Part shown: positions 4,219 to 60,207 of the stretch, one piece after another
Layout of the letters: each line of letters opens with the position of its first letter
Position numbering within the stretch: position 1 is the stretch's first letter
DNA from: a virus
IMG/VR virus record: IMGVR_UViG_3300031949_000012
Span: 31,290 to 95,289 of that record
Direction: 5' to 3' (one strand)
DNA length: 64,000 nt
Translations under genes and position numbers: made by a program
Notes under the pieces: model-generated
What the model saw: the letters and a program-made list of their open reading frames with translations, nothing else
Told to the model about the DNA's origin: nothing
Databases searched by the model: none

Positions 4219-4254
4219 CAAAAAGTCCCTGGCTGCCGGTCCAGGGACTTTTTG
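4219..4254. terminator. Bidirectional intrinsic terminator
   Basis: CAAAAAGTCCCTGG-ctgccggt-CCAGGGACTTTTTG. Confidence 0.88.
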
Positions 4255-4302
4255 CTTCTCAGGAGGTCCAACAAAACAAAAAGGAGGAAAACAATGTTTA
4301 CG
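4219..4302 (-). ncRNA. Candidate anti-RBS sRNA 1 (~84 nt)
   Basis: Lies between a perfect promoter and the terminator; no ORF; carries ACAUUGUUUUCCUCCUU and UUGGACCUCCUG tracts. Confidence 0.65.
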
Positions 4303-4308
4303 GGCTAA

Positions 4309-4337
4309 ATTATATATGATGGTTACATATCTGTCAA
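4309..4337 (-). promoter_or_regulatory. Sigma70 promoter, perfect consensus
   Basis: TTGACA-17 nt-TATAAT on the minus strand. Confidence 0.88.
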
Positions 4338-5108: not shown

Positions 5109-5137
5109 TTGACAAGTTATGCGGCTTATGTTATATT
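5109..5137 (+). promoter_or_regulatory. Sigma70 promoter upstream of virion operon
   Basis: TTGACA-17 nt-TATATT with extended -10 TG. Confidence 0.75.
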
Positions 5138-5205
5138 TGACTGGAATGTCGTCCTATATGTAGGGCGTGGGTTGAAACTAATTATAGAGAACGGGTGATG
5201 TGGCT

Positions 5206-5243
5206 TAGGGCTGCGGTAGTATAACCGCAGCCCTATTTTTTTT
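5206..5243 (+). terminator. Intrinsic terminator in the leader of the virion operon
   Basis: TAGGGCTGCGGT-agtata-ACCGCAGCCCTA followed by T8. Confidence 0.85.
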
Positions 5244-5261
5244 GGCTGACAGGAGAAAGTA

Positions 5262-6587
5262 ATGCCCTGGGATGTCTTCAAAAAGGACAATGAATACTGC
5301 GTACACAAGATAGATGATGATGGCGAGATGATGGGCGAGTCATTAGGCTGTCACAAGAGCCGCAAAGAAGCAATGGCCCAAATGAAAGCCCTCCACGCTA
5401 ATACCGATGAGAAGTTTGAAGATGAGCCGATTGGCTTCGGCTGGACTCTCCTGGCCGTAGCTGCCACCAACCGGCCGGGGACGCAGCAAAAGGGACACGA
5501 ATTATCCCTGGCAACGATAGATGGTAGAACCTACATTCGTACCCCCATAGTCAAGAAATCCGTAATCCGTAATCGAGGCAAAGTTCACCGCATTGACCAG
5601 ACCGTTTTTGACCAGGTTCTTCGGAACCACACCAATGAAGTCTGGGATAGTGCGCCTTATTTGCGCGTTTCTCATGAAGAGGGGGAAACCCGGCCGCCAG
5701 CCTTATGTTGGTTTGATAAGGACTCAGGCGGCTTTTTGCGCCAGGAGAAGAACTGGCTGGTCGGTTACGCATTGCCAGCTGATGCGGAAGTGGAAGATGC
5801 CATTAAGAAGAAGAAATGGCGCTATGCCTCAGCAGACCTTCACCCCGACTATACCTCAAACCAAATTGCGGTTTTAGAGACGGCAACGTTTGAATATCTT
5901 AGTGACAATCAGTTAAAGGAGATCAAGATGGATGAAAAAGAGAAAGAGCGCCTGCTTCAGCTTGAGCAGGAGCGAACCGACCTGCTGACCCGTCTGGAAG
6001 CGTCTGCGAAAGATCAGCTGCGCTTGCAAGAGCAAGTCAAGGAACTTTCAGTTAAGTTGTCCGGGACCTCTCAACCCCAGCTGGATGATGCGCCAGCTTG
6101 GGTAAAGGAGAAATTGGCCCAGCTTGAGAAGGAAAATATGGCCCTGGCCTTCGAGCGCGAGCAGGAGCGCAAACAGGCGCAGCTGGAACGCCGGGTGGCC
6201 AAGGCTGAGGCAATGGTCGCCAGACTTACGGCCAAAAGGGATAATGGCTATATTCTGCCGGCCGTGGTTATCGAAACGGCCAAGTCTTTGGTATTGGCTC
6301 AACCCATTGGTGAGGGGGACCGGGTTATTCAACTTGAAGCAACCCGTCCGCCCACAGTTGAGGAGCTGATGGATTATTACTTTGAAGGTGTCCAGCAGTT
6401 GGTCAACCTTATTCCGCCGATGGTGCGGTTAGAAGGGCAAACCGAGACGACCGATGTCCGCCTGGAAACCCTGACCGGGCCATTTGGTTATAGCCCGGCT
6501 GAGCTGGCCAAGAAATATGCAGAGAAGGCTGAGAAAATCTGGAGCGCATCACTGCCAGCCAAACAGGCCGGAAACAACGCAAATTAA
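5262..6587 (+). CDS. Prohead protease/scaffold protein (Mu I/Z-like organisation)
   Basis: Precedes decoration and capsid genes; WRYASADL segment; coiled-coil C-terminal half with internal RBS and ATG at 5928. Confidence 0.65.
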   Translation: MPWDVFKKDNEYCVHKIDDDGEMMGESLGCHKSRKEAMAQMKALHANTDEKFEDEPIGFGWTLLAVAATNRPGTQQKGHELSLATIDGRTYIRTPIVKKSVIRNRGKVHRIDQTVFDQVLRNHTNEVWDSAPYLRVSHEEGETRPPALCWFDKDSGGFLRQEKNWLVGYALPADAEVEDAIKKKKWRYASADLHPDYTSNQIAVLETATFEYLSDNQLKEIKMDEKEKERLLQLEQERTDLLTRLEASAKDQLRLQEQVKELSVKLSGTSQPQLDDAPAWVKEKLAQLEKENMALAFEREQERKQAQLERRVAKAEAMVARLTAKRDNGYILPAVVIETAKSLVLAQPIGEGDRVIQLEATRPPTVEELMDYYFEGVQQLVNLIPPMVRLEGQTETTDVRLETLTGPFGYSPAELAKKYAEKAEKIWSASLPAKQAGNNAN

Positions 6588-6619: not shown

Positions 6620-7033
6620 ATGGCTAATCCGACTTCCTGGGTCAGCAAAGGCCCGAAATTCATGTCGCCGCTGGCCTCAACCGATAACCTTGCCCGGTTG
6701 CTGCCCCGCATGTTCGACATGGCTTACCCCCAACTTACTTTTGTTGACGCCACTCACGTTCATGGTGAATATGCAACGCCTGGCCTGGTGGTTGCTCTTA
6801 ATAGCGTGACCAACAAGTATGTCCCCTGGGTTACTGACGCCTCACACGGGGCGGGCAGTGACACGGCGGTTGGCATCTTAGTTGAGCTGCTTGAGATTAC
6901 TACCTGGGACCGGGCCTGTACACCGGTTTATCATGGCGAGATGGTGGAGCAATACTGCTACACCGAAGCAGGCGCAATCGGCACAATTCCGGCCGGGGTC
7001 AAGACTGACTTGCCCGACATTCAGTGGAAATAA
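6620..7033 (+). CDS. Head decoration protein (gpD-like)
   Basis: 137 aa between scaffold and capsid; KYVPW...GSDTAVGIL motif; strong RBS. Confidence 0.72.
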   Translation: MANPTSWVSKGPKFMSPLASTDNLARLLPRMFDMAYPQLTFVDATHVHGEYATPGLVVALNSVTNKYVPWVTDASHGAGSDTAVGILVELLEITTWDRACTPVYHGEMVEQYCYTEAGAIGTIPAGVKTDLPDIQWK

Positions 7034-10930: not shown

Positions 10931-11463
10931 ACGATGCTCAATGCCGGCTAGCTGTAAAACAGCTGCTTATGGCCAACAATGAACACCTGACAGCCGGTTT
11001 AACTATTCAGGGGCAGCAGGTCTGGCTCAGGAGTGTGGCAGTTAGCGGCAACACGCCACCCGCAGTTTTCCCATTTGTTTCGGTGACAACACCCTCAGCC
11101 CTGGAAAACGACGTAGGGGGAAACACCCTTTGGGCACAATCGAGAGCTGAGTACGAAATATTGGTTACGGTGCTGAATATGGCCGTAGCCCAACCAGAAG
11201 ATACCACCGTTTATGAGGAAAGCGACCTGGTGCATACCCGGCTTTGTGATAGGATTATTGCTTTGTTCAAAGACCGGAATAATCGCTGGCTGACTGAAGA
11301 TGAAAGTGAACTCAAATTCGAGCTTAAACGAGGTGCAGCTATAAACCGGGTCAATTTTCACTCTGGCCTGGTTTGGGAGCAGGATACCGGTTATCACAGC
11401 CGGTTAGCGACAGAAATCAGACTTACTCTTGAGCAGAGGTGTACCAGTGACACGACGCTTTGA
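10927..11463 (+). CDS. Putative tail terminator
   Basis: FPFVSV motif, size, position before tail tube. Confidence 0.5.
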   Translation: MNDAQCRLAVKQLLMANNEHLTAGLTIQGQQVWLRSVAVSGNTPPAVFPFVSVTTPSALENDVGGNTLWAQSRAEYEILVTVLNMAVAQPEDTTVYEESDLVHTRLCDRIIALFKDRNNRWLTEDESELKFELKRGAAINRVNFHSGLVWEQDTGYHSRLATEIRLTLEQRCTSDTTL

Positions 11464-11806
11464 TAAATTGCAAACGCCGGTTGAAATTGAACCCATCGAA
11501 ATCACCGTAACCGAAGAAACCGGCTTTCTAACTCATGAAGATGAAGTAATCCCTGAAAGCAACGGCTCACTTCCCCGGCCAACGGTTTCAATGGCCTGCA
11601 TTTCTCGGCTGGGAAGTTATAGCTGCACCGGGCTTGTTACTGGCAGGTCTTATCATATTGAACATACCGGCACATCAGGTATAGACCTGGAAGATGCCGA
11701 AATTATTTCTACTACGTCCATCACCATCCGGTGTAGGCGCACCGGAGGTTGGATCGATGTAATTCCGGCCGGAATTACATCGGATATTGAGTTTGTCGAA
11801 ATATGA
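11429..11806 (+). CDS. Hypothetical protein
   Basis: ORF fills the gap in the operon; start uncertain. Confidence 0.5.
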   Translation: MSRGVPVTRRFDKLQTPVEIEPIEITVTEETGFLTHEDEVIPESNGSLPRPTVSMACISRLGSYSCTGLVTGRSYHIEHTGTSGIDLEDAEIISTTSITIRCRRTGGWIDVIPAGITSDIEFVEI

Positions 11807-11834
11807 TTAGTTAAATAGTTAAAGGAGAAAGATC

Positions 11835-12494
11835 ATGGCTGAGTTTTTTACCCACGCAGGACCGACCGCAACCTTACCCTACACCGCGGAATGGGAAAGC
11901 AGAGTTCGTATTGGCACAGGCCAGGGCTATGCAGCCCTCTCTGTTACCGGAGACTTATACGTCGCCGGATATGATTATGCCTCGATTGGATTGCAGGCCA
12001 GCAAAGCAACCGACCTGGGCATTTTGGGGGCGGCGCCATCCATTGAACCCATTGCTACCTTTGAGGAAATTGAGGGTGGTAATGTCAAGAGTTCAGGCGA
12101 ATTTAGCCTGACTGAGGAAGGGTTGACGATTGGCCTCTCCCTCCGGGAGTGGAACCCCACCGTGATTGAAGCGGTTGTGGCTAACGGTTCCATGTATACG
12201 GTTGGGGCTGGCGGCACGCAGCGGCTGATTGAGGCTGGTGGTTCTTGTACCATTCGTAACCGGCCGCTTGAAATTTCAGCGTTCAATATCGGTTGTAACG
12301 CGCCGGCAGCACAAGCTATTGCTGCCGGTATCCAGGGCTGGGTGATGACCGTTTATGGCGGGTACTTCTCGTCAGGTTTTAACATTGGCGAGCTTTCCCC
12401 GCGTGAAACCAGCATTTTGGAGCTGGAATATACGGCTATTCCGCTGTTGACCAAGGCCCTGGGCAACCGACTTTATAACATCTACATGTATTAG
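11835..12494 (+). CDS. Major tail tube protein
   Basis: Strong RBS, 219 aa beta-rich, directly upstream of chaperone and tape measure. Confidence 0.7.
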   Translation: MAEFFTHAGPTATLPYTAEWESRVRIGTGQGYAALSVTGDLYVAGYDYASIGLQASKATDLGILGAAPSIEPIATFEEIEGGNVKSSGEFSLTEEGLTIGLSLREWNPTVIEAVVANGSMYTVGAGGTQRLIEAGGSCTIRNRPLEISAFNIGCNAPAAQAIAAGIQGWVMTVYGGYFSSGFNIGELSPRETSILELEYTAIPLLTKALGNRLYNIYMY

Positions 12495-37564: not shown

Positions 37565-38683
37565 TCATAATCTTGTTCTCACAATCTCCTCCCATTCCAT
37601 AGTCCGGCCAAACATGGCCCCACTGATGGGGCAGGTCATAATTCCGATAGGGGGAAAGTGCCCCCGGCGTCCCTTTAGAATTTCAAACCTGGTCCAGAAA
37701 GGACGCAGGTCGCGGTCATAGTCTACGCGTAAATCAGTTTGCGAGGCAAAGTGCAACTTGTTCCCCCCCATGCTGCCGACAACTTTGCCGCCGCTTCTGG
37801 CCGCCCGGATGTTGGTCACGCTCTCTTGGCTTATCGCCCAAAGAGTTGAGCCGGTTAGCTTTACCCATCGTTCCAGGTAGGGGATAACCCGCATTTGCTT
37901 CTCGTAATCACTGCCATCTAAGAAGTAGGCGGTGATGTGGTCAATAACCAGTTGACGTATCCCTTTTTCGGCCAGGGCCAGCCAGCGCTCGAAAGCGTTT
38001 TCGATGATTGAGGTGTCGGTAAACCGCTTTTCTCGTTCTATCTCATCATAGTGCTCTGAAACGCCATAGACAATGATGGGGAAGGTGGCAATGGCAGCGC
38101 CAGCTTTCTCCCAGGCGTCTACTTGACGCTCGGAGAAATTAAAACCGGGTTGGGCGGCATAACAAGCCTCAACGTAATCAGGAAATAGCACACAGTCTTT
38201 CATCATCTTACCATGCTTCGGACTGGTAATCCCCTCTAGCAATAGTTCAGGCGGGTCGTTGGGCAGCGGCCGGTTAAACATCTCATAGAGACAATGTGCC
38301 CCTTGGGGGCCGGTGTAAAATTCATAGACCATAATTTTGGTGGCCAGCATACATCTCATGACCATAAAGTATCGCTCTATGGTCATCCCAGTCTCTAAAC
38401 TGTCCACCGCCATTCGATATTGAGCCGGCAGCATCCCAGATAGAAATTGATTTAAGATGATATTGAGCAGCAGCGTAGTTTTTCTGGCCCCGCCCTCGCC
38501 CTGAATGGCGATAAGCTGGGACATCAAAGGCTTGATGCCTCGCGGAAACGCCTGATCTATATGATAGAAGCCCCAAGGCACGGCCTTGTCCAGGCCGGTT
38601 TCCTTTGGCGGCGTGTACGCCTGTGGCTCGGTCTCCATTGCAATCCGGGCCGTTAATCCAGTTGTAAGGTTGACGGCGCTCAT
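37565..38683 (-). CDS. DnaB/RecA-fold ATPase (probable replicative helicase)
   Basis: Walker A GEGGARKT, Walker B LVIDHI, AISQ, C-terminal KGRRG. Confidence 0.75.
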   Translation of the reverse strand: MSAVNLTTGLTARIAMETEPQAYTPPKETGLDKAVPWGFYHIDQAFPRGIKPLMSQLIAIQGEGGARKTTLLLNIILNQFLSGMLPAQYRMAVDSLETGMTIERYFMVMRCMLATKIMVYEFYTGPQGAHCLYEMFNRPLPNDPPELLLEGITSPKHGKMMKDCVLFPDYVEACYAAQPGFNFSERQVDAWEKAGAAIATFPIIVYGVSEHYDEIEREKRFTDTSIIENAFERWLALAEKGIRQLVIDHITAYFLDGSDYEKQMRVIPYLERWVKLTGSTLWAISQESVTNIRAARSGGKVVGSMGGNKLHFASQTDLRVDYDRDLRPFWTRFEILKGRRGHFPPIGIMTCPISGAMFGRTMEWEEIVRTRL

Positions 38684-39216
38684 TCATTTGACGCTCCGGC
38701 GTAAATGGCGGCAAAGTCGGTGAAGGTCTGTCGGGCGGAAACTGTGGCCATGATAGTCCGCCTCTTTATCCGGTAAAGCTCATTGGCCTTGTAGGTCAGA
38801 GCTGCGCCTTTGCCATTAAGCTGGCGAAGGCTTCCTATGTTCTCAGCCCACCACAGGTCTTTCAAAATAAAATCAAAAAGTTCCAGGGCAAAGTTGCTTG
38901 AGGTTAAGCCCGGCAGCGGTTTTTTTTGCGCCTGTAGAAAGGCTCTGGATCGTACCACGATCCAGTAGGCGCAACGTAACTGCTCACGCTTATCTATCGC
39001 GTCAAACAAAAAAGAGGTCCCGTCACGTTTGGAGATAAACTTTTCCAGAAGTTCAATTAACTTCTGGGCCGCTGCCCTCTCCTCATTTAGTAACGTCAAC
39101 CCCTTCTTTCCGATGTCTGTCTGTGCGCCGGGCAGATATAACTCAACGCCACAAGACGGACAACATCCATGCTTTCTAGCCATGAAAGCAACATTACACT
39201 TGGCACATGTACGCAT
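38680..39216 (-). CDS. Zinc-ribbon protein, possible replication initiator/loader
   Basis: CAKC...CPSC; coupled to helicase; strong RBS. Confidence 0.5.
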   Translation of the reverse strand: MRTCAKCNVAFMARKHGCCPSCGVELYLPGAQTDIGKKGLTLLNEERAAAQKLIELLEKFISKRDGTSFLFDAIDKREQLRCAYWIVVRSRAFLQAQKKPLPGLTSSNFALELFDFILKDLWWAENIGSLRQLNGKGAALTYKANELYRIKRRTIMATVSARQTFTDFAAIYAGASNE

Positions 39217-39249
39217 GTATTCCTCCTATATGTTTTGTTTGGACCAGAC

Positions 39250-39406
39250 AAAAAAGCCGTTTCAGGTTCAATTCTGCTGCCAACCTTCTCCGTCTCACCT
39301 CTACGGGAGAGACCTGCCGGGGTCTTGTTCTGAGAAGAACTGCCGGTTTGCAGCAGAGCCAAAACCAAAACGGCTATGCCCTACTTGTGCGATATAGTCC
39401 CCCGGC
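39250..39406 (-). ncRNA. Long-hairpin RNA/leader upstream of replication genes
   Basis: Stem 39255-39375 with G-U pairs on the minus strand, ends in U6; promoter at 39413-39441. Confidence 0.5.
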
Positions 39407-39412
39407 CCAATC

Positions 39413-39441
39413 ATTATAGCACGAAAATTGATTTTCGGCAA
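39413..39441 (-). promoter_or_regulatory. Sigma70 promoter with palindromic operator in spacer
   Basis: TTGCCG-17-TATAAT; CGAAAATTGATTTTCG at 39422-39437. Confidence 0.75.
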
Positions 39442-39453
39442 GGGGAAAACATT

Positions 39454-39549
39454 AAAAAGAGTAGGGGCTCCCTACAACTAGGGAGCCCCAAAAGGAGGAG
39501 AGAAAATAAGGAGGTGAACAACAGAAGCATTAGGAGGATTCGTTTGTCA
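39454..39549 (-). ncRNA. Candidate anti-RBS sRNA 2 (~95 nt)
   Basis: Promoter 39556-39584, three CCUCC tracts, hairpin 39464-39489 then U-rich tail. Confidence 0.62.
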
Positions 39550-39555
39550 ACCTCT

Positions 39556-39584
39556 ATTATACCCTATTCCTCAAATTTCGGCAA
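39556..39584 (-). promoter_or_regulatory. Sigma70 promoter
   Basis: TTGCCG-17-TATAAT overlapping the SbcC stop codon. Confidence 0.72.
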
Positions 39585-40989
39585 GCTCAACTTCGCTCAA
39601 ATTCTCCTTATTCTTTCGCACCCTGATCACATGGTCAGCCAGGTCAGCCAGGCTGTCATCGTGGGAAATGACGATGAGCTGGTCGTAGTGACCCTTGAGC
39701 CCCGACAGAACCTCCACTAGCTGGCCAATCTGGGGGGCGTCTAAATTTACGGTTGGCTCGTCCAGAATGAACAGCGGCGCTTCCTGCACTGCGCTCAAGG
39801 CCAACCAAACTGAGATGGCAGCCAATCCTTGCTCGCCCCCAGAGAGGTTGGGCTTGAAGCTGATGTGAGGGCTACCATCTATCGAGGCCTCCAGTCCGTA
39901 GTCCGGCAAAATGTAGAGCTCGGCCAGTTCATGGTGAACGCTCATCAGGCGTGAGAAGGTTCTGGTCGCTATCCCCTGGATACGGGCTAGTTTGTATTCG
40001 GTAATCAGGGGCACCGCTTTCTCGATGACCCCGATGACCGCAGCCAGTTTCTTTCTTTCCTCGTAGATGTTGGCAGCTTGGATTTGTAGCTGGCTAACCT
40101 CGGCTTCATTCACGCGGGCCAGGGCCCCTAGACGCTTTTCAAGCGAAGTCAGCTGACGCCGGTTCTCATCAACGAAACCGGTAAGAGCCTTCTCCTGCCG
40201 CTCAATCTCCTGCTGCCGGTGAACTTCCCAGGCTTTCCGGGCGCTCAGTTTTGAGCCACAGACCGGACAAACTGGGTTAATGCTGTCTCTGGCTGGCAGA
40301 GACAGGAACGCATCAGGAGATGTCCGAAATTGGACAAGTGATAGTTCGTGCAGAGCGATGCTATCTCCTAGCTGACTTATCTCTTTAGCTAAGGTTTCCC
40401 TTTGCGCTCCGGTGCTTCGGGATAGCACTTCAGCTTTTGCTTCGAGGGCCTTCTGGTTTGCCTCTAAACCATTGTTTTGAGAGCGTAGGAGGGATAAAGC
40501 CTGCTGATAGGCACTTATCCCGGTTAGCTCGTTGAAAACGTCCCTACGGCGATGTGGGGGCATCAGGAAAGATGATGTGAGTTCCCCTTGGGCGATATAG
40601 CAGGCTGTTTCCGCATAGTAGGGCAAGTTGGTCCCAACCGGCAGGCCCAGATGCAAGCGAATAGCTTGCTCTATCTTGGCCAGGCCATTGACACATTCGC
40701 CATTCCAGTTGAAGTCGGTGATGGAGTTGTGCAAAGCACGGGTGACAACAGCCCGTCCCCCCTGGGTTGATGTAAAGGCAACCTCGACCTGGCCGGTTTT
40801 TGTGCCAGGGCGCAGAAAGTGCCCCTTATTCCGGCTGGGGAGATAGCCGAATAGTCCGAACAGCAATGCCTCAATGATGGTGGTTTTACCTGAGCCGCTG
40901 GCCCCGGCGATGACGTTCAAGCCGGGGGCGAAGTTGACCTTAGCCTGCTGGTACAGGTTGAAGTTCCTCATCTTGACTGAGGTAATCAT
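39571..40989 (-). CDS. sbcC: SbcC/Rad50-like ATPase
   Basis: GASGSGKT, YIAQG Q-loop, CPVC zinc hook, LSGGE signature, ILDEP, ISH. Confidence 0.9.
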   Translation of the reverse strand: MITSVKMRNFNLYQQAKVNFAPGLNVIAGASGSGKTTIIEALLFGLFGYLPSRNKGHFLRPGTKTGQVEVAFTSTQGGRAVVTRALHNSITDFNWNGECVNGLAKIEQAIRLHLGLPVGTNLPYYAETACYIAQGELTSSFLMPPHRRRDVFNELTGISAYQQALSLLRSQNNGLEANQKALEAKAEVLSRSTGAQRETLAKEISQLGDSIALHELSLVQFRTSPDAFLSLPARDSINPVCPVCGSKLSARKAWEVHRQQEIERQEKALTGFVDENRRQLTSLEKRLGALARVNEAEVSQLQIQAANIYEERKKLAAVIGVIEKAVPLITEYKLARIQGIATRTFSRLMSVHHELAELYILPDYGLEASIDGSPHISFKPNLSGGEQGLAAISVWLALSAVQEAPLFILDEPTVNLDAPQIGQLVEVLSGLKGHYDQLIVISHDDSLADLADHVIRVRKNKENLSEVELAEI

Positions 40990-41149
40990 AGCTCCCCTGT
41001 TGGAAATGATAGTGCTCGGAATTTTCGGCTTGCACCGCACTTAAAACGCAATTACACGCGCCGGTTCTAGTTTCCCCTGGGTGCGAGTGCCCATTTTTCT
41101 CAGCATGGTCTTTTGCGAGATGACCACAGCGACAAATAATATCAGTCAT
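40940..41149 (-). CDS. Small Cys/His-rich protein
   Basis: RBS AAGGAG; CRCGH...CNC. Confidence 0.55.
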   Translation of the reverse strand: MTDIICRCGHLAKDHAEKNGHSHPGETRTGACNCVLSAVQAENSEHYHFQQGSYDYLSQDEELQPVPAG

Positions 41150-41428: not shown

Positions 41429-42544
41429 CTACTCCTTTCCGGCCAGGACGTTTTCTTTCCGGCGCAATGCTTCGCGGGCCAGGGTCTTATCACCCCCGGC
41501 CGCCTGGATGAAGAACGAAAGTTCATCCTGAAGGTGAGGCATAGCTGCAGCTTCGCCGGTTTCGGGTTCGGCTTCAATCTGATGCAGCCGTACAATCAAT
41601 GCTCCGGCCTCTTTCAAGGCCCGGCTAATTTTGAGTAGGTTTCCAGTATCAGGAGAAACCGTTAGATGCACAACTGCATCTTCTATACCTTGCTCGGTGG
41701 TTTCCCGAATAATGTCTTCTTCGGTGTCTAGCAAACTCTCCCGAATGATGAACTTGCGCCGGTCAAGGTAAGGATGGCGCTGATACGACATCAGGCCGTC
41801 GCTGTCTACAAAGACTTGTACCAACCCGCGCCTGGTCCAGGCGTACTCATTTACCGCGCACGTCTCAAGACTGCCCGGACTGATAGCGTACTCAACCTCA
41901 TAAGGCTTGTGGATATGCCCCATTGCCAGGCAATCTACAATCCCCCGGCCGCCTGCAAAGAGAGCCTTGGGGATGACGCCGGACGTACCGGGCAGCACCC
42001 CTTCCAATCCGGCGTGAGCCAGACCGATGGTGAAGCAGCCCTTTTGCTTGTAGGCAGCCAGGTCCCGGATGAGCTTGCCAAAGGCATTAGGCGTTTGAGC
42101 GCCAGCCCAGGAGAAACCCCCAATGGCAATTGAAATGTTGGTCTGGTTATAGTCTAGCTTGATGACGCGAACCTTTATGTCTGCTTGTCGCAGCCCATCT
42201 CGACGTTCAAGCCAGTCGACCCAACCGTCCGGATCGACGTAGCTGGCAAGCTCGTGGTTTCCGGTAACAGCGTAGAGGCCATAGGGGAGCTTGCTATTGA
42301 TGCGCCGGCAGCCAAGCTCCGCGCTATCCAGGATAGCGCCGTTCATACCGCGCTCATGGGTGAGGGAGCGGTCAAACACATCCCCGCCAAACAAGGCAAA
42401 TAGAGGCGTTGGTTCTAGTTTTTCGGTGATAGTTTCCACCGCCCAATTCCAGGCGCGAGAGAAGTCTTCCTCTCTGGCGTCTGAGTTATATTGTCGCTTG
42501 CCCAGGTGGGCGTCAGCAAACACAACAAACGAAAATGGGGTCAT
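41429..42544 (-). CDS. sbcD: SbcD/Mre11-like metallophosphoesterase nuclease
   Basis: DAHLG, GDVFD, GNHE, AH, GHIH, PGS motifs. Confidence 0.9.
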   Translation of the reverse strand: MTPFSFVVFADAHLGKRQYNSDAREEDFSRAWNWAVETITEKLEPTPLFALFGGDVFDRSLTHERGMNGAILDSAELGCRRINSKLPYGLYAVTGNHELASYVDPDGWVDWLERRDGLRQADIKVRVIKLDYNQTNISIAIGGFSWAGAQTPNAFGKLIRDLAAYKQKGCFTIGLAHAGLEGVLPGTSGVIPKALFAGGRGIVDCLAMGHIHKPYEVEYAISPGSLETCAVNEYAWTRRGLVQVFVDSDGLMSYQRHPYLDRRKFIIRESLLDTEEDIIRETTEQGIEDAVVHLTVSPDTGNLLKISRALKEAGALIVRLHQIEAEPETGEAAAMPHLQDELSFFIQAAGGDKTLAREALRRKENVLAGKE

Positions 42545-42552
42545 CGTGCCTC

Positions 42553-43398
42553 CTAATAAGGATAAGGAAATTCTCTTACTCTCATAATTTCCGGCCAACC
42601 GGCCGGGTCTTCTCCTTTGCGGTCTATTGGGGCAAAGAAATGCTTTTCGCCGTTGATGTTTTCTCCGGCATATGGGTTAGCCCCAATTTGCTTCATGAAC
42701 ACCGGTGTACTGGCCCTCTGGCATTGCTTGATAATGCTAATGGCCCAACGTAAGTCGAAGGGCCTGGCCTTGGGGCCACTTTCACCGCCAACGATGACCC
42801 AGTTGACATCCGGCACGTAGGCTTTTAACCTTCCCAATTCATCAATAGGCGGGGTTATCCATCGGGACAAGTCCAGACCTTCCATTAGTGGTTCGCAGCT
42901 CAGGAATTTAATCATGGCCGGTATCTGGCAAAGCTCAAGCATCCGTTCATCAAGATACCTCTGGTTCTCAGCCGATGCGCCTACCCAGATGTGCTCCGGC
43001 CAGCTTTTGAGCCAATGCGCCGGAACCATCCGTAAAACATTTTCTGGCCGCTTAGTCAACATCTGCACATCCAAATTCTTGAGGCTTTCTAAAATCTGAC
43101 AAGCCTCTGACCGCCAGGGCTCAAGCTGAGGATGGTCTTCAAAAAAGTCGCTCATACTCTGGCAAAAGACGAGCTGCCGGATACCGGATTTACCAGCCTT
43201 TCTATCCCACAGAAGGATGTCTGTCCAGGAGGACTTGATGCGCCATCGTTCCGTAGTTTGGGCTGGCCCCCAGATGTCTCTACCGATACGTTTGCTCAAG
43301 GTTTCGGCGTAACAGTGTTGGCAGCCCGGCGATACCTTCATACATCCCCACCAAAAGTTCAGCGTGTGGTGGGTCCAGCCGATTTTAGTGTTCTCCAT
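42553..43398 (-). CDS. Phage Gp37/Gp68 (DUF5131) family protein
   Basis: GCMKVSPGCQHCYAE, SMSDFF, LTKRPEN, SCEPL, WVIVGGESG, FMKQIG. Confidence 0.9.
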   Translation of the reverse strand: MENTKIGWTHHTLNFWWGCMKVSPGCQHCYAETLSKRIGRDIWGPAQTTERWRIKSSWTDILLWDRKAGKSGIRQLVFCQSMSDFFEDHPQLEPWRSEACQILESLKNLDVQMLTKRPENVLRMVPAHWLKSWPEHIWVGASAENQRYLDERMLELCQIPAMIKFLSCEPLMEGLDLSRWITPPIDELGRLKAYVPDVNWVIVGGESGPKARPFDLRWAISIIKQCQRASTPVFMKQIGANPYAGENINGEKHFFAPIDRKGEDPAGWPEIMRVREFPYPY

Positions 43399-43876: not shown

Positions 43877-43954
43877 AAACAAAAGTGGGGCATCTGGCTG
43901 GGATGCCCCGTAAAGGAGAATAGGAGAAAGAGTCATTTGGCTAGAATGTCTCAT
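43877..43954 (-). ncRNA. Candidate anti-RBS sRNA 3 (~75 nt) complementary to structural-gene RBSs
   Basis: Promoter 43960-43988; body AUGAGACAUUCUAGCCAAAUGACUCUUUCUCCUAUUCUCCUUUA; terminator hairpin 43887-43909. Confidence 0.7.
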
Positions 43955-43959
43955 AAACT

Positions 43960-43988
43960 ATTATAAGCCGAAAATTGATTTTCGTCAA
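43960..43988 (-). promoter_or_regulatory. Sigma70 promoter with palindromic operator in spacer
   Basis: TTGACG-17-TATAAT; CGAAAATTGATTTTCG at 43969-43984. Confidence 0.82.
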
Positions 43989-48024: not shown

Positions 48025-51000
48025 TTTGTAATTTCCATTCTGAGATAATTTTCCAATGTGCTTGCGTGTTCGGTGGTAAGAGCCGTCACGTCCCAACCCT
48101 TCAGATGGAAGGATGATAACCGCTGCACCACCCAGGCAAATTTCTCCTCTCCAACCCGGCCCATCAGTTCGTTGATAGTTTTTAGCTGTTCGTCTGACAC
48201 CGGGTTTCTAAGTGCGGCTCTCTTGTCCGCAGAGATGATGAGCCCAATAGCTGGAGATTTCTCATTGCTGGTCACGTTTTGCCTCCTTCTCTTTTTCTTG
48301 TAGAACTATGGCTTGGACAAATGCGCTTTCTGCATCGAAGCGGGCCTGGCTGCGTGTCCAAAGCCAATGAACGTTACGTTTGATAATAATAATTTTTTCC
48401 TGGTCAGTAACCAAGAGAGCCTCATCGGGCCGGTTCCAGCGAAAGCCGCTCTCGAAAACGGTCTTGTAAATGTCAGGCCAGATTATCTGGTCATCTTCAA
48501 GTTCCGGCAGCGGGTCAGACTTTGCCTGGGTGGCAAACACAACGCCTATCCACTTCTCATAAGGCCGGATGACCTGCCAGCGAAAAACCCCGGCATCATT
48601 AAGAAAACTTTGCCACATGTCTAAGAAGACATAAAGATATTCCTCAAGGCCCAAGCCCTCGCCCCGTTTTACAACGGGCAGATCGGTGATGAAGCCCTGC
48701 CGGGCTACTGGATACCTCTCTACCGGCTCAAGAGATTGGTCTGGGCTATTTTCAATCAGGTCTAAAACTATATCCCGCTCGCTGGGGCTAAAATCATATA
48801 GGTCGACATATAGGTCGAACATATAGTTCAACATCTTCCAGAGCCGGGACAAATCAGGCGTTTCCATGTTTGACCTCCATGGCCTTTTCTAAGGCCGCTG
48901 TTATCTTTTCAATCTGCCGGGCCCGCTCCTCTCTTAGCTGGTTCAGAGCTTCGGTTATGGTTTTAGCCTGAGTGTAATCCCCAGCCTTGACGCACAAATC
49001 AACTAACTGGTGGGCCAGGCTCTCCGGTGACGAGCCATGATAGCCAATCACCTTGGCGGTCTTTGCCGTTAGACGGACAACGACCAGGTTAGGATGGTCT
49101 ATCTGGTTCTCTAGCCCGATTTCGTAACGGCGGCCGGCTAAGGAGAAGGCGCAAATCAGGTGATATTGCTTGGTTCTATCTTTGCTTTTTTCATTCACTA
49201 TTCACCACTTTCTCCCAGGGTCAGGATGAAAAGGGTAGTCAGGCTGCGGGTAAACACATCTTGCAGCTCGACCAGCCTTTCAAAAATAACCTCTTGTGCC
49301 GGAGTAAGTTCCAGGCTATGCTTAACCAGATACATAGCCAGGTCATCAGCGTTTCCAACTACCAGTTCTTCTCCACCATCGGCAAAGCGAAGGGGAGCCC
49401 CGCAACAGATGGTCCGGTAAGAGAAATCCATTCCATTTTCGGCTGCAAGAGGGGCAGTATATTCATGGCTCCCCTCCATTCCAAATATCAGTTCTGTGGT
49501 GGTCACATCAATGGTTTCTTTCTCCACCCTAGTTACTTTACTACACTGCGGGCACTTCACCAAAACAGGTTTCATTCCTCCACCTCTTTCCAGATACTAT
49601 AGCCTTCACGCTGTTCAATCAATATGTCAGCGCCAGTCGACGTTGGACAGTCGTCAGACCTCAGATAAAAGCCGCTGTCTAAAATGGCTTTATAAACCTC
49701 CTCTGGCAGCTCGATTTTTATCGAGCACAAACCGCGACATTCGCAAAAGTATTTCATCACTCCTCCTGTAAATATGTTTTCGGATCATACGACATTTCAC
49801 TTGCCTCGCCTCCCTCGCCTCCCGGCTCTCTGGCCTCCTCCCATAGCCTGGCCAGGTCTTGTTTGTCTTTCACATCTCTAGGCAGAATAAAGCCTCGTGT
49901 CAGTTTCGGGCTCTTGAGCGTAATCGTCACCAGCCCCTTATCATCAATCAGAACACACTCAACCTCGTGTCGCATAAAGCGAAACGAAAGATAGTGGTTG
50001 ATGACTGACCAGGCCCCGGCTTCAGACTCCGGGTCTGCCTGTAAGAAACCCTCCTCAACGCCAGACAGTTTGCCCGGCGCTCGAAGCAAGACCGGCTGGT
50101 GTTCCAAGCCAGCAAAAACAGTACTCATTAAATCGCTCATGTGTTTTCCTCCTAGTTCGGTGAACTCACTAGTTCGTCTCCGCTGCCTGCTCTCGAAGCA
50201 GGCGCGCATGATAAAGTTTTATTTCCTCAAGTGAAACGGCCGCCCGCCGGTGTTTGCGGCTGGCGTGTTCCTGGTGAACATACAAATATTCACCTACTTC
50301 TTTTTCGTCTGGGACAGCAATAACTTGTCCCCTTTCGAGACAAACCTCTATTGCCCCCAAGATAGCCGCCAGGCGTTCAGCCTCAGGCACGTCGGAAAAG
50401 GCGTTTTGAAAATCGTCAGCCAGTGACATCTTTCACTCCTTTCAAGCCCAATGAAGAATGATACCCCCCAAGGCTTTTACCCGGCTAAAGATTCTGGTGA
50501 TGCGCCGGTAATCGTCCATAGCGGTGGTATATGGAATATTCTTACGTTCCTTAATCAACCTCTCCAACTCCACATCGTAGACCGGCAAGATAAAATCACA
50601 CGAAAAATTGAGAAGGTCCTCATCTGGACTGTAAGGGTGAAGATCGCCTGTTTCCTCCATCGTATAAAGGTTGACTTTGCCCAACCAGGCAACATCGTTT
50701 CTAGCCTGGACGAAATCCTCAATCGCTAGATTTGTTTCACCGTTCACTGCTCCCATCTTATCTTCTGATATATCGTCACAATAGTCTCTCATGCGCGTTT
50801 CTCCTGTAATAGTTCGTAGACCTGAAACTCGGCCGGGTCAAGCCACTTCTCATAGCGGGCCCGTGTCCAAATTTGGACAACAGCATCTTCTAATAACTGC
50901 CGGCTTCTGTCACTCACAAAACGCACCCCGGCATTGTGGATGCTGCCGGCAATGATTTTGTAAGGGTCGCCCTTGTCATCCTTGAGCTTCACGTAGAACA

Positions 51001-51879
51001 GGCGGCCCCGGTTCATTTGGGATTTCCGGCGCTCATTCGCCATCTTGTTCATACTCCTCTTGTCTGGCTTCTTCTTTCAGTATCATCTCCCAGACCTGGG
51101 CCGCTTCAGCATGATAGTTTGCATCTTCCAGGGCCCAATGGAAAATTCTTAGCAGGGGCAGGCCATCCCAGTCGCAAAAGCGGGCCAGGGCAATACCCAG
51201 GCCGTTCTCCTGGCGTTCCTGAACGTTGTCAGGCCGGATATGGTCCGGCGGCAAAGACTCCTCTGCTTCGTAAATGGCGATCCTACTCAGCAGTTCGCTA
51301 GAGTTTAATTTGGTAGACATTGTTTTCCTCCTTGAATTGTAGTTCTAAAGTGTAGCCGGGGGGATATTCCCCATTGCTGACTAAAACTATCTTTCCGGCC
51401 GAAAGAGTGATAGTGATTTCCTGAGCACGTGATACCTCTACGCTTTCTACTTCTCCATCTAAAATGGTTTGAATTTTAGCCTGCAACAAGTCGGCCTCGT
51501 TATCTGCATCTTCATCTCCCCAACCTTCAATCTCCTCAGCTTGATAAAGGCCAGCCGGCGAAATGCTGTCTTCAGCATCGGGCGTTCTGGCTTCAATGAT
51601 CTCGAACGGAACGGATCGGACCGTGAGCTTGTAGCTATGAGGAAATTCAAGGCGATACACTCCCTTGATGATAAGGTGGGGGTAAATCATCAAGCGGTTA
51701 GGTTTGCCATAAATCCAGGTGTCGTTCCAGTAATAGCCCTTCCTGTAACAAAAGTCTACAATGTAATTCTTGTCGTCATCTGGAAAAACGACTGGCAGGC
51801 GTTTCGCACTTTCTATGACAATCTTGTTTTCAGGCGGGTCCAGGGGACCCTGGTAAGTCAGCTTGATTTTGCGTTTCAC
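48021..51879 (-). CDS. Run of small hypothetical ORFs (48021-48275, 48262-48867, 48854-49198, 49198-49575, 49572-49760, 49757-50140, 50169-50429, 50442-50792, 50789-51052, 51033-51320, 51298-51879)
   Basis: Overlapping or coupled ORFs, most with clear GGAG(G) RBS; no recognisable family. Confidence 0.6.
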
Positions 51880-54343: not shown

Positions 54344-54381
54344 GATAATCCTCCTAAAATTATATATCAGGCAGCAGCCTA

Positions 54382-59625: not shown

Positions 59626-59654
59626 ATTGTATCACGAATTACTTACTTTGTCAA
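59626..59654 (-). promoter_or_regulatory. Sigma70 promoter for probable leaderless RHH mRNA
   Basis: TTGACA-17-TACAAT; ATG follows -10 after 7 nt. Confidence 0.8.
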
Positions 59655-59739: not shown

Positions 59740-60207
59740 TTATTTTTTATAACCTTTGGATATGCTTCTAATACCCCTTTTATGGCAAGGCCCACAAAGT
59801 TCATTATGGGTCAAGCCTCGCCAATAAAAGGCGCATATTTTACATTTATGTAAAATTGTTCTTCTGCTGGCTTTTGGTGCCTTATTTTCCGGTTGCTCTA
59901 AATTGTTTTTCTCTGCTTCCGCTCTCCTGGCCGCTTTGACTGCCTTTACAACTTTATTGGCTAAAACAAAGAAAATTCCGCCTGGAAAGCGTGGCCGGCT
60001 TCCATCCGGTAGCATCATAACCCCGCCCGAATTGACGAACTTTAACGTTTCGAGATAAACCAGGCGGGTTTGCTTTGCGCCGATAGAACGCAAAATTTTT
60101 CGTAGACGACCGCAATCCCCCTCGAACCTTTCTGGGTCCTTGAAAAAGGCGGCCACAATTTTATTATAAACCTCAAGTTGTTCTGGGTTCAAATCCGAGA
60201 TTGGCAT
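59740..60207 (-). CDS. PHAX-type RNA-binding domain protein
   Basis: IG...ET...GG...DGSRPRFPGGIFFVL closely resembles the PHAX RNA-binding motif (DGSRRRTPGGVF); C-terminal CxxC...CxxC. Confidence 0.72.
   Translation of the reverse strand: MPISDLNPEQLEVYNKIVAAFFKDPERFEGDCGRLRKILRSIGAKQTRLVYLETLKFVNSGGVMMLPDGSRPRFPGGIFFVLANKVVKAVKAARRAEAEKNNLEQPENKAPKASRRTILHKCKICAFYWRGLTHNELCGPCHKRGIRSISKGYKK

Follow-up and report, generated by a model that had tools for sequence, protein, structure and literature searches.

Small RNAs that carry anti-Shine-Dalgarno (anti-SD) sequences are well known in Gram-positive bacteria. Short RNAs are also known from bacteriophages, where the c4 RNA of P1/P7, the CI RNA of P4, sar of P22 and OOP of lambda regulate genes of the same phage through base pairing with ribosome-binding sites (RBS) or close to them; the c4 RNA, for example, pairs with short sequences that include an RBS. 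The csRNAs of streptococci are about 90 nt long, occur in several related copies per genome and carry their anti-SD sequence in an unpaired region between two stem-loops, from where they have been proposed to block translation initiation (PMC3091779). An anti-start-codon CAU lies beside the anti-SD in 53 of the 61 csRNAs, and csRNA promoters are CiaR-dependent, with a TTTAAG direct repeat in place of the -35 element (PMC3091779). Similarly, LhrC of Listeria monocytogenes, a G-poor RNA of a multicopy family, possesses three redundant CU-rich SD-binding sites, which have been established experimentally and of which one is located in a hairpin loop, one in a single-stranded stretch and one more elsewhere in the RNA (PMC4132741).

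Here we describe a locus that compares with these RNAs in a phage record of 95,289 bp, which has direct terminal repeats and is rated complete. By the window we mean the whole stretch of 64,000 nucleotides that was analysed, i.e. bases 31290-95289 of this record; positions refer to the window unless they are marked as genome positions. The locus, which we will call cassette B (39454-39584, minus strand), has directly 5' of it an SbcC-like gene (39571-41040) with Pfam SMC/AAA domains. A preliminary description had reported a promoter, three anti-SD tracts and a GC-rich hairpin, and all of these are present on the minus strand where they had been placed. The features of the locus, including a second promoter behind it, are:

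39556-39584, minus strand: promoter P1, with TTGCCG (39584-39579), a 17-nt spacer and TATAAT (39561-39556), matching 10 of 12 consensus positions
39454-39548, minus strand: transcript B, predicted to be about 95 nt long, with predicted start and 3' end
39517-39548, minus strand: weak 5' hairpin with tract 1 in its apical loop, in both the MFE and the centroid fold
39530-39540, minus strand: anti-SD tract 1, AAUCCUCCUAA (CCUCC at 39537-39533), in the hairpin loop
39507-39518, minus strand: anti-SD tract 2, UUCACCUCCUUA (CCUCC at 39514-39510), predicted to be mostly single-stranded
39490-39501, minus strand: anti-SD tract 3, UCUCCUCCUUUU (CCUCC at 39498-39494), predicted to be single-stranded
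39454-39489, minus strand: terminator, with an 11-bp stem (8 G-C pairs) and a 4-nt loop (39489-39464), followed by UACUCUUUUU
39413-39441, minus strand: promoter P2, TTGCCG-17-TATAAT with a TG extension, 13 nt past cassette B

The -35 element of P1 lies within the last SbcC codons and the SbcC stop codon, TGA (39573-39571), inside the P1 spacer. Transcription would start at G39548, 7-8 nt past the -10, and would end in the U-run. The first 59 nt of the predicted RNA are poor in G (A10 C19 G5 U25), and tract 2 shows an 11-nt identity to the canonical 3' end of 16S rRNA. Five nucleotides separate the terminator stem from the start of the U-run, and because of this distance termination may be partial, so that P1 could also feed downstream genes. 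The fold of the RNA, which none of the shuffles matches, has a z-score of -4.4 to -5.4. The sole minus-strand ORF at this place, encoding a hydrophobic peptide of 38 aa (39530-39414), was rejected, as it has no SD and passes through both the terminator and P2. Cassette B possesses the generic attributes of a small-RNA gene, namely a promoter of its own, an intrinsic terminator (both as consensus matches) and no ORF.

Read on the plus strand, the three tracts form AGGAGG-type motifs, which could act as SDs or as GGA motifs and belong to a small ORF or a CsrA-sponge-like RNA; a TTG 6 nt past the third motif opens a frame of 59 codons. However, this frame is antisense to the 3' end of SbcC, no start codon is suitably spaced from either of the first two motifs, and neither a promoter nor a terminator was found on that strand; moreover, every gene between 34.7 and 64 kb, and hence every local one, shares the minus-strand orientation of cassette B. 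The plus-strand ORFs and SDs were rejected on these grounds, and we regard a plus-strand feature as extremely improbable.

Like the csRNAs, cassette B has two stem-loops flanking an unpaired anti-SD region. The Rfam csRNA model (RF02379) aligns with it end to end in the same layout, with CCUCCUAA in the first loop, but its score of 22.2 bits (E = 3) is far below the gathering score of 57 bits. Unlike the csRNAs, cassette B has TTGCCG as its -35, with no TTTAAG or CiaR direct repeat, lacks the conserved nonamer, is encoded by a phage and has tracts that are full CCUCC repeats. Unlike most csRNAs it also contains no CAU between 39548 and 39490; a CAC that adjoins tract 2 and a CAA at the 5' end are all there is. 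With LhrC it shares the G-poor composition, three CU-rich sites of which one lies in a hairpin loop, a single-stranded stretch and the presence of siblings. The motif of LhrC, however, is UCCC and its third site is found in the terminator loop, whereas the three CCUCC of cassette B all lie upstream of the terminator. No other Rfam family, including LhrC (RF00616) and rRNA, matched cassette B at E <= 10, and there was no Rfam match at gathering thresholds in the whole window. By analogy, cassette B would work like the csRNAs and LhrC, but it is not a member of those families. The preliminary description had further proposed that the RNA mimics the 16S tail. This proposal is not independent of the anti-SD one, since any sequence complementary to an extended SD will be identical to UCACCUCCUUA, and no small-subunit rRNA model matched at E <= 10.

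The explanation that we favour, with slightly less than even confidence, is that cassette B encodes a csRNA/LhrC-like anti-SD regulatory RNA, which would be transcribed from P1, form the 3' UTR of SbcC, or both. The host-type sigma-70 promoter overlapping the SbcC end would start an RNA of about 95 nt that ends at the GC-rich hairpin, and, upon read-through from the SbcD-SbcC operon (SbcD at 41429-42598), the operon mRNA would also carry this sequence as its 3' tail. The exposed CCUCC tracts would then pair with SDs of the GGAGG type and compete with the 16S tail, and translation initiation would be lowered, as is established for CU-rich, G-poor small RNAs in Gram-positive bacteria. The case for this explanation is an anatomical and statistical one.

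The statistical part begins with the rarity of the locus. The triple-CCTCC pattern occurs twice in the 64-kb window against 0.17 expected, and one of 100 shuffles reached two occurrences. In the minus-strand arm of about 29 kb, sense-strand CCUCC is found 14 times, three of them in cassette B, and about 0.002 such clusters are expected. The strict sigma-70 promoter pattern occurs six times genome-wide against about 0.6 expected, a tenfold enrichment; all six matches are on the minus strand and intergenic, four lie within cassette loci, and three of them open cassette B and the two sibling cassettes, A and C, described below. Alternatively, the tracts could be a pyrimidine spacer before the SbcC terminator that arose by chance or from base composition, next to a fortuitous promoter match. 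Such an origin fits with the absence of a specific target of cassette B (see below), but it has to contend with the rarity of the tract cluster, with a tenfold enriched promoter pattern that is largely confined to cassette loci, and with the occurrence of the same design three times in one genome, and we consider it very improbable.

The only other triple CCTCC cluster of the window (49809-49841) reads as GGAGG x4 on the mRNA. It is the Glu/Gly-rich C-terminal tail of the gene at 49757-50140, with its GGAGG x4, that yields the best predicted genome-wide duplex of RNA B (-40.5 kcal/mol), which is probably driven by composition and makes a weak lead.

Two further cassettes of the same design are found in the window:

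4219-4337, minus strand: cassette A, with TTGACA-17-TATAAT at the upstream stop codon, two CCUCC tracts and a bidirectional terminator
43877-43988, minus strand: cassette C, with TTGACG-17-TATAAT containing a 16-bp palindrome, two CUCCU tracts and a terminator

In all three cassettes the -35 is located at, or a few bases from, the upstream stop codon. Behind the promoter lies a pyrimidine body that is unstructured, measures about 45-60 nt and contains two or three C(C)UCC(U) tracts, and an intrinsic terminator closes the cassette. Tandem CUCCU within 25 nt is found on the minus strand of the window only in cassettes A, B and C; in the rest of the genome it occurs inside genes or opposite real ribosome sites. 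Likewise, a scan of the 95-kb genome for intergenic minus-strand terminators with perfect stems recovered only those of A, B and C. Cassette A closes a minus-strand gene island, and since no credible gene lies downstream of it, its promoter appears to make a short RNA only. The terminator of cassette C lies immediately before the SD of the next gene. A strong plus-strand terminator-like hairpin with a 12-bp stem and T8 (5206-5235) is situated inside the minus-strand gene island near cassette A, where it overlaps an ORF (5126-5308) that has no SD and may be spurious.

Behind cassette B, promoter P2 is predicted from the sequence to drive a leader of about 155-190 nt to a gene for a 178-aa protein (ATG at 39216). 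This leader (39205-39406, minus strand) contains a long-range closing stem, AGCCGUUU...AAACGGCU, followed by U6 about 35 nt before the gene; as a special structure it was rejected, because its fold (z = -1.2) is not distinctive. Among the predicted targets of cassette A, the translation start region (TIR) of the 178-aa gene ranks first. The P2 spacer (39422-39437) and the promoter spacer of cassette C (43969-43984) share one and the same 16-bp palindrome, CGAAAATCAATTTTCG. Allowing up to 3 mismatches, it has six matches against 0.7 expected, and it looks like a putative operator for a repressor.

This arrangement suggests the main alternative function, namely that of an operon-boundary or attenuation cassette, in which P1 and the hairpin would form a promoter-proximal terminator that gates the replication genes via an antiterminator. 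The short RNA would then be a by-product, and the pyrimidine tract would have no role in trans, possibly being a loading site for a protein or Rho. Sites of the latter kind (rut sites) are C-rich and G-poor, and the body of RNA B, with C19 and G5 in 59 nt, resembles them. Behind the hairpin of cassette B there are indeed a further promoter, a leader that again resembles a terminator, and the genes for the 178-aa and a DnaB-like protein, and the position of the cassette C terminator directly before an SD, the 5-nt displacement of the U-run in cassette B and the lack of a specific target of B all agree with attenuation. It leaves unexplained, however, the extended antisense matches of A and C to distant TIRs, the lack of a credible gene that A could gate, and the use of precisely CCUCC in the repeats; besides, the downstream genes are served by P2 and do not need P1. 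We regard attenuation as unlikely, though by no means far-fetched. A short RNA is also constitutively made at lambda pR'-tR' (6S) and other promoter-proximal terminators, where a strong promoter is followed by a terminator within about 100-200 nt. RNAs of this type are not known to function in trans or, unlike cassettes A and C, to be antisense to distant TIRs, and no Q-like factor or binding site was identified at cassette B.

The ribosome sites of the phage differ between its two gene classes. An SD with GGAGG precedes 44 of 114 minus-strand genes (39%), i.e. the early, replication and accessory genes, against three of 64 structural genes on the plus strand (5%; p = 1.5e-7); among ORFs of at least 80 aa the numbers are 30 of 78 and one of 44, respectively. 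GGAG that lacks the final G shows the same frequency on either strand. Given this split, RNAs with CCUCC, i.e. A and B, would address the early/replication class. The correlation fits with a class-specific control of translation, but it would be equally expected if early genes simply had stronger sites.

Complementarity of the three RNAs was evaluated against 178 TIRs, which derive from a crude ORF/SD gene call with approximate gene starts, and was compared with a null of RNA bodies shuffled everywhere but in their anti-SD cores. Cassettes A and C match distant TIRs, 35-47 kb away, across both SD and start codon and far above these core-preserving shuffles. In cassette A, 26 of 30 aligned columns match the TIR of the 178-aa gene (38680-39216), and the TIR of a 95-aa gene (51033-51320) is matched over 17 nt exactly across SD and ATG (20 of 21); these alignments score 38 and 37, which none of 400 shuffles equals, and the best duplex has -39.0 kcal/mol (equalled by 0 of 45). 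Cassette C matches the TIR of a head-decoration gene (6620-7033) with a score of 42 (0 of 400 shuffles as good), and its best duplex of -51.9 kcal/mol compares with a null minimum of -40.3 (0 of 45). Matches of at least 10 nt link C to five TIRs on the plus strand (structural genes) against one on the minus strand (p = 0.02).

By contrast, no specific phage target of cassette B emerges beyond what its cores explain, and its complementarity is generic. Its best duplex with a TIR has -33.7 kcal/mol, and 22 of 90 shuffles are as good; its best alignment score is 30, which 29 of 400 shuffles equal (p about 0.07). At least 8 contiguous complementary nt are found in 35 of the 178 TIRs, 30 of 114 on the minus strand against five of 64 on the plus strand (p = 0.003), a bias that follows the GGAGG split. 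These values agree with the broad-spectrum RBS blocker that had been proposed from the sequence. An 11-nt match to the RBS of a DUF932-like gene (54347-54357), put forward there as the best in the window, is real, but it is what the cores alone yield; the same applies to the 9-nt RBS matches at SbcD and the 41149 gene, while no RNA ligase gene, which had been named with them, was identified among these matches. The suggestion to search the remaining genome for longer matches did yield one of 13 nt outside the window. It lies in the TIR of a gene for a 168-aa protein of unknown family (genome 9828-10334), where the 13 nt are exact over the SD and spacer and the match extends over 25 of 31 columns through the GUG start and the first codons. 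This is the top match of B and its best non-self match genome-wide on either strand. The idea that the main target lies outside the window is thereby weakly borne out (p about 0.07), and the 168-aa gene is a candidate target and a lead, not a result.

The tracts might also act in cis, as in the icaR mRNA of Staphylococcus aureus, in which an anti-SD in the 3' UTR folds back on the SD of the same transcript. Located between the SbcC stop codon and the operon terminator, they would be carried by any transcript of the SbcD-SbcC operon as its tail and could fold back on the SDs of that transcript, and the TIRs of SbcD and the 41149 gene do contain 9-nt complements. Nevertheless, complements of at least 9 nt occur in two of the about seven operon TIRs against 14 of 114 genome-wide (p about 0.2, a hand estimate), which is no enrichment, and a strong dedicated promoter such as P1 would be superfluous for a 3' UTR. 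We therefore think a purely cis-acting role improbable.

Returning to the anti-SD regulatory RNA that we favour, cassette B differs from the phage antisense immunity RNAs, which have one defined target in the same region, whereas no target stands out for B, which has generic anti-SD seeds, and any action of its siblings A and C would be on genes 35-47 kb away. Since there is no single strong target and GGAGG is nearly confined to minus-strand genes, B would most likely be a class-wide damper of messages with strong SDs, be they phage early genes, host genes or both. A point against this role is that an RNA blocking GGAGG would also hit the phage's own early genes, and hence would need a suitable timing or dosage.

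A few other regions of the genome deserve mention. A protein of 155 aa (59740-60207, minus strand) has a PHAX RNA-binding domain above the Pfam threshold (E = 1.8e-9) and is possibly a small-RNA-binding protein, in a phage that would itself make several small RNAs. Nearby, TTGACA-17-TACAAT (59626-59654, minus strand) is followed about 7 nt later by the ATG of a short ORF, which, read by eye, may encode a leaderless regulator of the ribbon-helix-helix type. Genome positions 11100-12150 (L012:100-1150) comprise about 1 kb of non-coding DNA in which TAATTGATTATC(C/A) occurs three to four times and, on the plus strand, GGGAGGCGGGG three times, once immediately before TATAAATGG; this could be an origin or a regulatory region.

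As judged from sequence comparisons, the 95-kb soil phage is an uncultured orphan. A search of sequencing runs located its DNA in a soil metagenome, its probable source, and in a second soil run only, with no RNA run listed; the second run holds two identical 151-nt pieces of SbcC, which carry no variants. No nucleotide relative was found among deposited phages (blastn). The next-best SbcC homologue among 5.8 billion proteins is 27% identical, and relatives of the capsid protein at 75-39% identity occur only on Logan/ENA contigs. IMG/VR was scanned with protein patterns from SbcC, the capsid and the 178-aa protein without a match, a degenerate DNA pattern of the three tracts of B had no match in IMG/VR, and the operator-promoter pattern had none in GTDB genomes and IMG/VR. 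Capsid-profile scans of IMG/VR and JGI metagenomes led to distant loci (L002-L010) with 26-57% capsid identity, in which no such cassette is present, although these loci are so partial and remote that its absence is uninformative. The same profile detected no relative in the contigs of GTDB genomes, and hence no prophage-based clue to the host, and no tRNAs were found in the window. The presence of strong AGGAGG sites, of GUG/UUG starts and of a TG-extended -10 points to a host that is Gram-positive-like, which is an inference only.

A full-text literature search for phage-encoded anti-SD small RNAs returned an unrelated paper only and no published phage with several anti-SD RNAs against its own TIRs. 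Generic translation silencers as short as the RNA predicted here would be of interest as portable tools. Provided that all three cassettes are expressed, the virus would partition its genes by SD flavour, each class having a matching decoy of the 16S tail, and B would be the least specific and hence the most 'ribosome-like' of the three. A wider scheme, which we hold to be rather unlikely as a whole, would join the three RNAs into a network. Here A and B, with CCUCC, would silence the early/replication genes with GGAGG, B acting class-wide and possibly in host shut-off, and C, with CUCCU, would hold down the TIRs of the head-decoration and capsid genes, while the scarcity of GGAGG in late genes (1 of 44) would serve to evade A and B. 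If this network is real, the timing of the lytic cycle would partly be controlled at ribosome binding, by RNAs that imitate the 16S tail.
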